DNA of 63,076 nucleotides, counting the filler, from Sphacelaria rigidula (lineage: Eukaryota): the NCBI GenBank assembly GCA_964200075.2. It is 7 parts of 7 records of this genome, joined end to end, with 100 filler letters (N's around TTAATTAATTAA, not from the genome) between each part and the next. Parts side by side here need not be neighbours in the genome. Positions count along the whole stretch, not along the records: positions 54,153 to 63,076 come from CAXNAA020009740.1; 6 more parts are not named here. One strand, 5' to 3'. Below the pieces are notes generated by a model. That model was not told where the DNA came from, did no database searches, and saw only the letters and a program-made list of their open reading frames with translations. Every line of letters starts with the position of its first letter. The stretch's first letter is position 1. This document shows positions 54,153-61,510 of the stretch, in pieces. Both the position numbers and the translations under genes were made by a program.

Positions 54153-57100
54153 ACCCTGCCAGACGGTGAAACGAGACCCCGTTTTCTCTTGTTCGCACAT
54201 GAGAGAAGTGTCGCCACTTCGCGGCGTACAATCGTGCTGAATAGCGACGGCATCATTTTTTCACACTTGATGGGCTAGTGGACCGAGTATCGTGAAGTAT
54301 GTGTGCTTGCTGTATCGCGCATCATTTGTATTTGTTGGGGCCGACATGTCCGTTTATATAGTACTGTACGGCACCTTACCGTACTGTACAGTACGATACG
54401 CTACAGTACTGTAGTTTAGTGTACTGTAGCGTACTCTACTCTACTCTACTCTACTCTACTCTACTCTGCTCTACACTGCTGTACTGTACTGTACCATACT
54501 CTACTCTACTCAACCGTATTCTACCGTACTTTACCCTGCTGAACTGCACTGTACTGCGGTGTCCGGTGTCGTTCGGCGTCGTTCGACCAACCGGCCGCAT
54601 AAAATGCGGACCACACCATCGCCGACTCTGCTTGTAGCATCCTACGCATGTCCGCACCACACGGCGCCGTAAACGTTACATGTTACCCGCGGCCTGAGTG
54701 TGCAGAGGCCTGTGACGCCGGCGTATTTTCGTTACAGGCCCTGTGCCGTCCGAGCCTGGGTATTGTGTAATCCTTCGTTTGTACGCCACGTCCGTCGAAT
54801 TCGTCAGCCTGCGCGAAGGAATCCGCCGTGGTTTCTGCATGTCTGCACTCAACAGTCCGCACGATGGTTCCGCACCTGGCGCCGCCCACGGGCGGCCGAC
54901 ACCTACTACGAGTGCCGAGAAGGCCGAGCCGGACCACAAACGGGGTCGGCGGGGGGAAGCGTTGAAGTATTGTGGATTTGAAGCATCTCAGGAACAGGCA
55001 AGTGGGCTTGTACTTTGCATCCCCACCCTTTGGTAACATGCGTGCTCCGCTGTCTCCATTGTCGCACACCGGCGGTGAATTCTTTTTCTCAACCTTTGCG
55101 GCGCGAACCCTCTGCTTAGTACAGACTGTCGGTGGCGGGTGATCGTTGAAGTAGAGGGCGAAACTTTGGGCGAGATCATGCTGTCAACATAAGCACTGTT
55201 TGGTGAAACATTCCGTGCTGTAGTGGGCAGGCCTTAACCCTGCGCGCCGATCCCTCAGGCTATGATTAGTGTCCAGTTGTCGGCACTTGCGTAGAATCTT
55301 CTTTTGTATTGTGGAGACTCTACCGGGCGGTGCGCAGGCGACCGACTGCAGTTGCAGGTTCGGGCGCAAGAGCGTGCTACCCTGTACTAGGGAGGAAGGT
55401 GTGTCAGTTTGGCAACGGTACGTTCGATACGTGACCACCGGTAATTTGCATGGTTCTTCCCCGCCTTCCTTGTGAGTGGTGATCGCTGCTGTAGCCGCAG
55501 CAGACATGAACTTCCGGTTCTCGACACCGCACGGCGTGGCATCCGTATACTGCGTGTGTATCTCTGCCCCCTTCCGTACAGGTTCACGATGGAGAAGATG
55601 TCCTCCCATTTTACGACCGCCCGAGAAGTGAGGGTGGGCATAATATTAAGTTTCCCCTCTATCACTTCCTCCTCAACGCCTCTCGGGAGGCAGAGCCGGA
55701 GGCAGAACTGCCGCGGAAGATCGACGGCAGGGTACGGGAGTATTGGACCCGGGTCGTCGAGGAGACACGGTCAGGAGGGGAAGGGAACATATTCGAATAT
55801 CCGTTGAACTCCTCAAAGAGCTTGGCTGCCTTTTTGACGGCGGCGGCACAGGCAAGTGTTGCAGACGGGTGTGTCTTTGACCCAGATCGAAGTAGCATGC
55901 GATGGCGTTGCTGAAGTACTGCAGTGATGCTCCGCTGTACGGCTTCCCCCTACGTGCGAGGGTGCTCCAGCAGAATGAAACCTGCGTGTTGTATTTTCCT
56001 TGGGGTTGTCTCAGTACTCTGCGTCGCGCGCACACGCCATTCTTGTTACTCGGATTCTTCCGGCTCATTCGCCCCAATTACACGACCCGTGCTGACATGA
56101 ATTCACCCGCCTTCGTAGACCGAACACCGCCGTTCGTGACATTGAAAATGAGCGTAATGCATGACCGCGCGGTTGACCTCTGGAACGCGCGAAATGTGGG
56201 CCGTACTGTGGCCAGGATCGAGTGCTGTCCGCCATGTTGGGATTGCGAATGGAGAAAAGAAAGAGAGACATCGTCTTTACGCGAACCGCCTCTTCATTGG
56301 GAGAACAGCACGCGACAAGTCAGAAGATCTTCGACGCTCCGCCGCGAAACTGGTTACACGACTACAGTGACTCCAGGGGTTGGTTATTCCTACAGCACCG
56401 AGCCGGTATCCCCGTGCAGGCAAGCGAGCCTAAGTGTATATCAAGATTGACATGTGATCCCTGCGACTGAGTATCGGTGTCGCGATGGTCGAAGCACGAC
56501 GGGATTCAACCAAGTTGCATCTTGTACCCACATCATCTACGAGGTTATTACCTTTTTACCTCAAATCACCCATCGTGCTTTGTCCTGACACAGGTTATCA
56601 TGCCTGTCCCGCGAGCAGCCGGCCAAACGTGCGTCACATCTATAACCATATGTGGTCGTGAGGTCTCCACTCTCGCCGTATTCCAGTCGTGTCTCGGTGC
56701 GATTCGGTCAGCGGAAGACTTGAATGAGGTAAAACGATCATGTGACGAGGATGTACTCGACCCCGCGAAACATTTCTTGCGTTGTCCACATATTGTCGCC
56801 AAGCCATGAGATGTTTGGCTGCTTGGGCTGACCTTGCAGACCTCCGTTCCTTCGCCGCTTTTTGGAAATTCAGGTGCTGACCACCGTGGCGGGTGTCGGA
56901 CCCTGCACCGGTATCGGCAAGTACGATCACGAAGACAGGCAAGCTCAGGAGGGACACGATCACGTTGTGAGAAACGCCCTGCGACAGGGGCCGCCTCGAG
57001 TTGGAGGGCCGGGCATCGCCGCAGGCTCCCTCCGGGGTTTCACCAGTGACGCCGTGTCTTCCACTCTGGCCTTTATAGACAACGAGGGAAGGTTCTGGTC

Positions 57101-60100: not shown

Positions 60101-61510
60101 TTTTGCCAACACACCCTCTCCTTCTCGGCCCCTCCTCCTGCAATCCTCTCTGTGGTCGCTTGTGCCTACCCGTCAATCTCGCCTGGGTTCGTCTTCTAGA
60201 TGGGTCCGTTCTTGGCTTCGGCTGCGACTCCCCAGATTTACTCTCCTTTGTTATATTGCACACAGTTTTGTTAACGAGAATACCCTGATGCCTCAAGAAA
60301 TGTATTTGCAGGCCCCTTGTGTATATGTATTCGGCGTACCGCTGTGGCTCTGTCCCGTGAGATGCAAATCGCCATTGTACGGGTTGAGCAAAGAAAATGG
60401 GATAGGGTCCAGTGTGAACGTTCATTCGTCCCCTAACCTCAACAAAACAATCCCGTCGTGTTAAAATAAAAACAAAACGGAAAGAAGACTGATCCCTGGT
60501 GTCTTGTTGCGTCATGCATTAGGGGCCATCCATCCGAAATTCGACTGCACAACCATCGAAAACTGTGGCGTAAGATCCGCATCTTGTGTGCTTGGTGCCT
60601 CTGCTCCCGGTTCGCGCCGTAGTGGAATGGACGCACCACTAAAACTTGCTGAGTACACGTTGCATTGTTGCCCTTGCGGTTATATCAGGTGTGTACGGGC
60701 GGTCAAAGCTCGACGTGAAGAACGGGCGCAGGAAGGAAGCCGGTTATATTTTTGCCGCGAAGTCCAACCATCTCGACAGGCTCCTGGAGATTTTGCATTT
60801 CTTCGATGGATGGAAGGAGGGTCTTGATGCATTGAGCCCAGATTCCGCGAGCACCGCCTTCATCACCCACCAGTCGTGGTTTGACATCCGCCTCACCATC
60901 GTTGGCTTCATCGCCATGTGCCGATACATTTTCCAACATCGGGAGTGGGTGCTAGAGGGTACGAGGCAGCGCTTTCTTCACCCTCGGGTATTCAGTCAGG
61001 TAGGGAGTAGGCGGCACGATGTGTTCGTCAGCATGGTCTTGTCCCATGCTTCCCGATGCATGTGAGTGCATGCATGCGGGGATCGTTTTTTTTTCTCTTT
61101 CGTATAATCATCCGATATGTTTTCTTCTTCTGTGTTACATACAGGATATCCTTGAGCACCGTTTCGCGCACATCCGAGGCGGGGTGGGTTCACATCGGAA
61201 CCCGACGAGGGAGCAGGCGATGTCGGCGGGTAGCAATGCCGACTTGGCGCGTGCGTTTCATGGGGGACAGCGACGTAATGCATCGCGTGCGGACCCTAAA
61301 CGGGGAAATATCGACTTCCTTGTGGATCTCGCAGGGACGACAGCGACGTCGGTGTTGCCCGTGAACGCTGCCGAGAGAAAAATGCAGCTAAGATCTCCGG
61401 CATGGGACGGTGTCGGCCATGTGATTGGGCCCCGAGCGATAGATTGGATCAGACCTGCCAGCACATCCCGGTCCTCACGGGTTGGCAATAGTGGTGGCAA
61501 CTTTTGGTAG
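54153..61510 (+). CDS. P-element/THAP9-family transposase-like protein, multi-exon, 5'-partial. Exons (54153-54165?), 54738-54997, 55582-55851, 56594-56728, 56874-57275, 57538-57744, 57924-58139, 58348-58587, 58757-58938, 59325-59751, 59882-60008, 60689-60999, 61145-61510
   Basis: The spliced product is open throughout. P-transposase motifs appear in order: GWRF...GYSILCEVLKLPS (HTH region), LVWDLM (first catalytic D), CCDGASEH (second D), SDSQHIVK, MSVGLANKCLS, NDFSDIFN, FSQDILEHRFAHIRGGVGSHRNPT (catalytic E). Exons from 56594 on are well supported; the upstream ones less so. Confidence 0.9.
54358..54560. repeat. (TACTG/TACTC)n pentanucleotide low-complexity tract, intronic
   Basis: Direct reading. 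Confidence 0.9.

Follow-up and report, generated by a model that had tools for sequence, protein, structure and literature searches.

The 63,076-nucleotide stretch of DNA analysed here (the window), from the alga Sphacelaria rigidula (assembly GCA_964200075.2), carries an intact, transcribed and spliced gene of 13 exons on the plus strand between positions 54808 and 61510. The gene probably encodes a very divergent DDE (Asp-Asp-Glu) transposase of at least 1081 amino acids (aa) that resembles the P element and THAP9 enzymes, judging from the residues of the spliced product, and the P-type identity is considered likely. An even chance is given to the locus being the full-length copy in a small and very divergent P-superfamily-type family that has kept a transposon-like character and also contains partial or internally deleted copies.

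A transcribed and spliced gene of thirteen exons

Nine holders of the sequence from three studies were found among public runs, and four runs were compared over 54600-62300. The best holder, X1, is DNA-like, while X6, X7 and X8 are small runs from one study that are recorded as "RNA?". These three are treated as RNA-like because their contigs lack the introns; the RNA status of X6-X9 is a guess only, no run being recorded outright as RNA. Stretches without cover in the RNA-like runs were left uninterpreted. From the contigs of X6, X7 and X8, 12 introns were obtained for the full-length transcript, and one further joint is alternative. Splice support comes from this one study, each joint being seen in one to three of the three RNA-like runs. 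In X1, none of the 13 joints was found, and its contigs cross the introns unbroken (e.g., 57248-59674). After cut shifts, the introns were placed as follows:

54998-55581, 55852-56215 and 56420-56593 (+): GC..AG introns
56729-56873, 57276-57537, 57745-57923, 58140-58347 and 58588-58756 (+): first five GT..AG introns
58939-59324, 59752-59881, 60009-60688 and 61000-61144 (+): last four GT..AG introns

Nine introns are thus GT..AG and three GC..AG. The GC donors at 54998, 55852 and 56420, together with that of the alternative intron, all read CAG/GCAAG and all lie towards the 5' end of the gene. Phase 0 was found in 10 of the 12 introns, and many exon-skipped forms therefore stay in frame.

Joined by script, the 13 exons give 3246 nucleotides (nt) or 1081 codons with a terminal stop only. 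The open frame runs from the ATG at 54839 to the TAG at 61508-61510 and encodes 1081 aa, of which 868 are counted from M214 (ATG 56600). We estimate the chance probability of 1081 stop-free codons at ~(61/64)^1081, roughly 1e-23. An earlier reading made from the sequence only had proposed 12-13 exons in a single frame free of stops and frameshifts, with 868 aa from the Met at 56600, and had named RNA data as the check on its junctions. Its frame is borne out by the 13 exons described here, and the 12 introns are removed in the RNA-like contigs. As the transcript-based model gives the identical count of 868 aa, the exon borders proposed from 56600 onward are those that the transcripts use. The frame reaches three exons further 5' than that Met, to the ATG at 54839. 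This first ATG in the window may differ from the true start, since exon 0 opens at an acceptor (54808) and its upstream partner exon lies outside the window.

The exons and the features tied to them are listed below, with proteins P0003 to P0034 denoting relatives that are described further on:

54808-54997 (+): exon 0, aa 1-53; acceptor AG at 54806-54807, ATG at 54839, GC donor CAG/GCAAGT; based on a loose end before 54807 (X6, X7) and on the joints 54993->55578 and 54993->61141 (shift +4)
55582-55851 (+): exon 1, aa 54-143, phase 0-0, GC donor; joints in X6/X7 and X6/X8; weakly resembles the P0029 N-terminus (E=4e-5)
56216-56419 (+): exon 2, aa 144-211, GC donor; 5' joint supported by X6 and X8, 3' joint by X8 alone
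56594-56728 (+): exon 3, aa 212-256; holds M214 (ATG 56600), the residue to which the start annotated for the Ectocarpus protein P0028 aligns
56874-57275 (+): exon 4, aa 257-390, Cys-rich; C..CxxC pattern common to P0028, neither THAP nor C2CH; 0 Pfam matches
57538-57744 (+): exon 5, aa 391-459, predicted linker region; joints in X6, X7 and X8
57924-58139 (+): exon 6, aa 460-531, helix-turn-helix (HTH)-like (..GWRFNPKVLRW..LKLPSLAHVRR..); 0 Pfam matches for the exon itself
58348-58587 (+): exon 7, aa 532-611; candidate first catalytic D554 (58414-58416), assigned by inspection, in ..GILVWDLMHI..
58757-58938 (+): exon 8, aa 612-671 and 2 nt; candidate second catalytic D667 (58922-58924) in ..VIATCCDG..; the motif is (C)DG in P0003, P0020 and P0025 and ADG in P0029
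59325-59751 (+): exon 9, aa 672-814; DSQH with D719 (59464-59466) and H722 (59473-59475), then KKxVN, followed by the predicted start of the insertion (GTP-binding-like) domain
59882-60008 (+): exon 10, aa 815-856; ..NVNDFSDIFN with D853 (59996-59998), a motif conserved in P0028, P0029, P0033 and P0034
60689-60999 (+): exon 11, aa 857-960, predicted rest of the insertion domain; 5' joint supported by X6, X7 and X8, 3' joint by X6 alone; 40-44% identity to P0028 and P0029
61145-61510 (+): exon 12, aa 961-1081 and TAG (61508-61510); (Q)DILEHRFAHIRGG..NPT with candidate catalytic E964 (61154-61156); also the acceptor of an abundant short isoform
54998-61144 (+): alternative intron from exon 0 to exon 12, GC..AG; in-frame 174-aa product
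61511-62101 (+): 3' untranslated region or flank; X1 depth 140-232, with an X1 loose end at 61731, past which some copies diverge

The window is made of seven ~8.9-kb pieces joined via runs of N around an TTAATTAATTAA linker:

8928-9027, 17954-18053, 26980-27079, 36005-36104, 45029-45128 and 54054-54152: joins between pieces

The gene sits on the last piece (54153-63076), and the run of N with the TTAATTAATTAA linker stops at 54152. Position 54153 is therefore an artificial piece start, and the Gypsy elements on other pieces are not genomic neighbours of the gene. The sequence-only reading had placed the 5' end off the contig, which was an artefact of how the window was constructed and sampled.

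A candidate P-type transposase signature in the spliced product

The spliced product contains LVWDL at 551, CCDG at 665, DSQH(IVKK) at 719, SDIFN at 852, QDILE at 960 and NPT at 979, while MSVGLA...S straddles the junction of exons 9 and 10. Every motif quoted in the sequence-only reading is thereby present. The accessory motifs KKxVN, MxVxLA..S, NDFxDIxN and QDxxExxFxxIR..G..NP resemble what we take to be the P/THAP9 consensus. The signature residues occur in the order D554, D667, D719xxH722, D853 and E964, which is the P order D..D..D(2)H..D..E.

According to passages of PMC8230255, the P signature consists of DDE plus [C/D](2)H directly after beta5, with an insertion domain between beta5 and alpha4, an essential D inside that domain and then the E. 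The [C/D](2)H position is occupied here by DSQH (719-722), at the start of the predicted insertion domain. The D, H, KK and N of this D(2)H-KK-N block are nearly invariant in 30 aligned sequences, and the AlphaFold model of P0029 places a short strand before the D(2)H motif and a helix after it, with a local pLDDT (predicted local distance difference test) of 78-92. By order and spacing, D853 is the candidate equivalent of D444 in the Drosophila P transposase DmTNP, as that residue is described in passages of PMC8230255. The spacings between the signature residues are 113/52/134/111, compared to 73/36/105/87 in DmTNP and 70/40/105/94 in hTHAP9, and are thus 1.2-1.5 times longer.

Profile tools were given unjoined sequence, with exons and partial relatives scanned singly. 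Among the 67 sequences scanned against Pfam, 12 distinct families scored below threshold, two of which are P-specific and colinear. PF21789 (TNP-like_RNaseH_C) was matched by the stop-to-stop open reading frame (ORF) that surrounds exon 12 (61004-61510) on QDILEHRF..IRGG with E=0.11 and 13 bits, against a cut-off of 24. PF12017 (Tnp_P_element HTH) was matched by residues 269-311 of P0028 with E=0.053 and 14.4 bits, against a cut-off of 23, and the matching stretch of this 696-aa protein is homologous to exon 6 of the window in the alignment. Given ~6 P-related models among 24,736, we estimate that ~0.003 such P-specific matches would be expected by chance. The P-type reading is favoured because these weak matches are specific (two of the 12 on ~6 P models, in the right order) and not because of their score. 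In the ESM Atlas, all ten of the ten best named matches of P0029 were THAP9/TNP-like clusters at 0.81-0.90. Exon 9 of the window reached 0.96, with 20 of 30 matches in a set carrying PF21788 (TNP-like_GBD), and this domain is carried by 18% of the members in the Atlas clusters matched.

In the layout that these residues suggest, an N-terminal region of ~460 aa without a recognisable THAP finger would be followed by a P-type HTH (~aa 470-520) and by a core of RNase H-like type that includes D554 and D667. The D(2)H at 719-722 would lead into a long insertion of ~245 aa, similar to the GTP-binding insertion domain and with D853 inside it, and then into a helix with E964. By analogy, the enzyme would bind the element ends and its DDE triad with Mg2+ would cut and rejoin DNA, while the insertion domain would hold a nucleotide cofactor.

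Relatives, copies and readings of the locus

A HMMER search with exon 9 against 1.84 billion representatives gave 28 clusters at the 50%-identity level, mostly exon-sized fragments of 39-79% identity, and one 696-aa protein (P0028). Word-index searches identified three of the relatives, two being unnamed proteins from different Ectocarpus strains and one a EukProt model:

P0028: Ectocarpus sp. CCAP 1310/34, 696 aa, no functional name
P0003: Ectocarpus sp. 12 AP-2014, no functional name
P0029: EukProt g13948.t2, no functional name

By their sequences, these three are true homologues that share the exon 9 family and the motifs. Identity amounts to 40-44% over the C-terminal 335-408 aa and to 26% over aa 214-532. 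Ectocarpus itself contains two or more deep lineages, P0003 and P0029 being 48% identical to each other. The annotated models are incomplete, P0028 lacking an equivalent of aa 533-734 and P0029 of aa 220-658. The part of the catalytic core that is missing differs between the annotated models P0028, P0029 and P0032, and the candidate catalytic E is replaced by G in P0032. Some family members may lack catalytic activity, or their models may have been built wrongly. Short exons were misplaced when window exons were aligned together with the long relatives, and these mixed alignments were left out of the evidence. When metagenome and viral contigs were scanned for the exon 9 family, 247 and 99 pattern matches appeared, respectively, none of which was confirmed. 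Among the literature matches listed, none dealt with P-like elements of brown algae, which does not prove that there is no such paper.

The summed depth in X1 was 34-63 over the gene body, 111-190 over 54600-55113 and 140-381 over 60768-62052, so that both ends, coding exon 12 included, reach 3-10 times the depth of the body, although summed contig depth does not equal copy number. Within the body, X1 differed from the window by ~0.7% (17 of 2427 letters). Over exon 0, one contig of X1 reaches just ~96% identity, with 11 differing letters and 2 gaps among 317 positions, pointing to a paralogue. The X1 joints 54651->60891 and 55509->60966 look like internal deletions but are weak, their short sides measuring 22 and 29 letters. 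A further X1 contig matches the window up to 56961, inside exon 4, and continues with 94 letters unlike it; this break may reflect a structural variant or another copy broken in the coding region.

The joint from exon 0 to exon 12 had a depth of 642 in X6 and 492 in X7, compared to 5.6-33.5 for the internal joints, and the resulting RNA is in frame and encodes 174 aa. Deleted copies, or exon skipping at the locus, would yield this abundant product from the first and last coding exons. A 5' leader, present in two variants with a single G/T difference, is spliced to three acceptors, those of exons 0, 7 and 12, with loose ends before 54807, 58347 and 61144. The leader sequence had no match in the window and is probably an upstream exon common to several copies. 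Spliced-leader trans-splicing was set aside, as one loose end of 100 letters fits an ordinary upstream exon.

Taken together, the depth, the deletion-like joints, the paralogue, the leader variants, the deep lineages and the short RNA lean modestly towards a transposon family with partial copies. One full-length copy accompanied by internally deleted ones is the pattern that passages of PMC7776569 describe for the P-like elements of zebrafish. The same passages report that deletion derivatives and alternative RNAs of the Drosophila P element give repressors. By analogy, the locus could belong to a hitherto unrecognised, THAP-less and still-mobile P-like lineage in brown-alga-type genomes whose dominant 174-aa fusion regulates or represses the transposase in trans, similar to the KP or 66-kDa P repressors, an extension that we think rather improbable.

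Several points weigh against a mobile family, in addition to the limits on depth and joints given above. All ten of the relative clusters looked up were singletons on 1-2 contigs. No inverted repeat longer than 16 nt was found between the available ends (54153-55120 and 61500-62200), nor was a terminal inverted repeat (TIR) or target site duplication, and the other 54 kb of the window held no second copy of the gene. Table 1 of the curated Ectocarpus transposable element library names no P superfamily (PMC12477816), though the library contains 51 unclassified DNA families.

The singleton clusters, the negative search for TIRs in the sequence available and the library without a P superfamily would suit a domesticated P-like gene that the host has retained as an analogue of THAP9, i.e., a single, selected and immobile locus with regulated alternative splicing, which we hold possible but doubtful. 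The uniformly low depth of the gene body in X1, the 12 introns with 10 in phase 0, the exon 9 borders kept in relatives of only 40-79% identity and the annotation of the Ectocarpus relatives as ordinary proteins all agree with it. Outside exon 0, the strain differences listed for exons comprise eight non-synonymous and seven synonymous changes (a partial list, with 49 differences unlisted), a ratio below the ~3:1 expected without constraint, which hints at some constraint. Such a gene is argued against by the raised depth of the locus ends, exon 12 included, by the deletion-like joints and the exon 0 paralogue, and by the many deep lineages, of which a single genus contains two or more. The Ectocarpus models that miss core parts and the G for E in P0032 likewise do not suggest a uniformly conserved enzyme.

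It is unlikely that the locus is a real expressed gene outside the P superfamily, either of another DDE or RNase H-like lineage or a lineage-specific protein with chance motifs. The search results that count against the P-type identity would fit such a gene. No Pfam model reached its curated cut-off among the 67 sequences (single exons, ORFs and partial relatives), ten unrelated families scored as weakly as the two P-specific ones, and ten exact exons matched no family even at E<=10. Three further exons matched none either. The THAP domain (PF05485) was not found on any of the 13 exons or the relatives, and the singly scanned exons and partial relatives gave no match to PF21787 or PF21788. Sequence and profile searches of the PDB returned no P transposase chain at E<=10; designed helical repeat proteins, the sole matches at E<0.01, were taken as spurious hits to a short repeated segment. 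Structure prediction was uninformative, with a mean pLDDT of 51.8 for P0029 (34 rows) and of 44.5 for exon 9 (12 rows), and Foldseek found no match of the P0029 model in the PDB at E<=0.001. By the notes of the Atlas tool, scores <0.9 and recognition <2300 are weak evidence, and the results for both P0029 and exon 9 rank there as leads or weak evidence. Chance motifs would, on the other side, have to account for five signature positions in the right order together with the accessory motifs, whose likeness to the consensus is presumed. Just two of the profile matches fit together into one picture, and these are both P-specific; both Atlas searches point to TNP-like families. The P-type transposase of the sequence-only reading thus stands on signature order, two sub-threshold profile matches and Atlas neighbours, while the singly scanned exons and partial relatives reached no curated profile cut-off and no solved P transposase structure was matched.

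That the locus is a decaying copy with a leftover frame, transcribed as read-through or noise, is very improbable, since the shallow full-length joints relative to the short isoform and the X1 break in exon 4 are set against 1081 stop-free codons, 12 precisely spliced introns and signature residues that are all intact.

Flanking elements and known P-type systems

An imperfect pentanucleotide array of TACTC/TACTG units (54360-54556, ~200 bp) lies just upstream of the gene. At 62102-62987, 0.6 kb downstream of it, an insertion of ~886 bp is bounded by a TA duplication and by 15-nt TIRs that agree at 14 of their 15 positions. None of the four runs compared contains this insertion, and 62103 runs straight into 62990 in them. 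The inserted sequence is a very high-copy repeat (X1 depth ~24,000) with an internal hairpin at 62678-62950 (75-nt arms), and its relatives occur in the window at 10988-11135, 11673-12044 and 15411-15537. It looks like a polymorphic miniature inverted-repeat transposable element of the Tc1/mariner type. Window-wide Rfam and tRNA scans gave no matches.

Compared to the Drosophila P transposase (DmTNP, 6P5A), the algal protein shares the order D, D, D(2)H, D, E, a long insertion between D(2)H and E and a putative HTH upstream of the core, the latter drawn from the sub-threshold PF12017 match on P0028. Alternative RNA forms that yield shorter products are also common to both, as far as passages of PMC7776569 describe them for Drosophila. 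In contrast to DmTNP, the algal protein has no THAP domain, no sequence match to solved chains and the longer spacings, and its gene has 12 introns instead of three and encodes at least 1081 aa instead of 751. With THAP9 and zebrafish Pdre2 it shares an intact, expressed full-length P-like gene, and the copy pattern of Pdre2 matches the depth pattern in X1. THAP9 differs in its THAP finger and in passing Pfam thresholds, whereas the algal gene has no THAP domain and sub-threshold profiles only. Human THAP9 has no deleted copies, and the hosts are an animal and an alga, respectively.

If the P-type identity holds, the gene would represent an intact and expressed P-like transposase from a stramenopile, brown-alga-type genome, in a lineage too divergent to be named by Pfam, and the known range of P-like enzymes would be widened. 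For a group in which genetic tools are scarce, it would be a candidate for either an active DNA transposon or a domesticated nuclease. It would also add a second case of a P-type transposase that may be controlled by its splicing or deletion derivatives.

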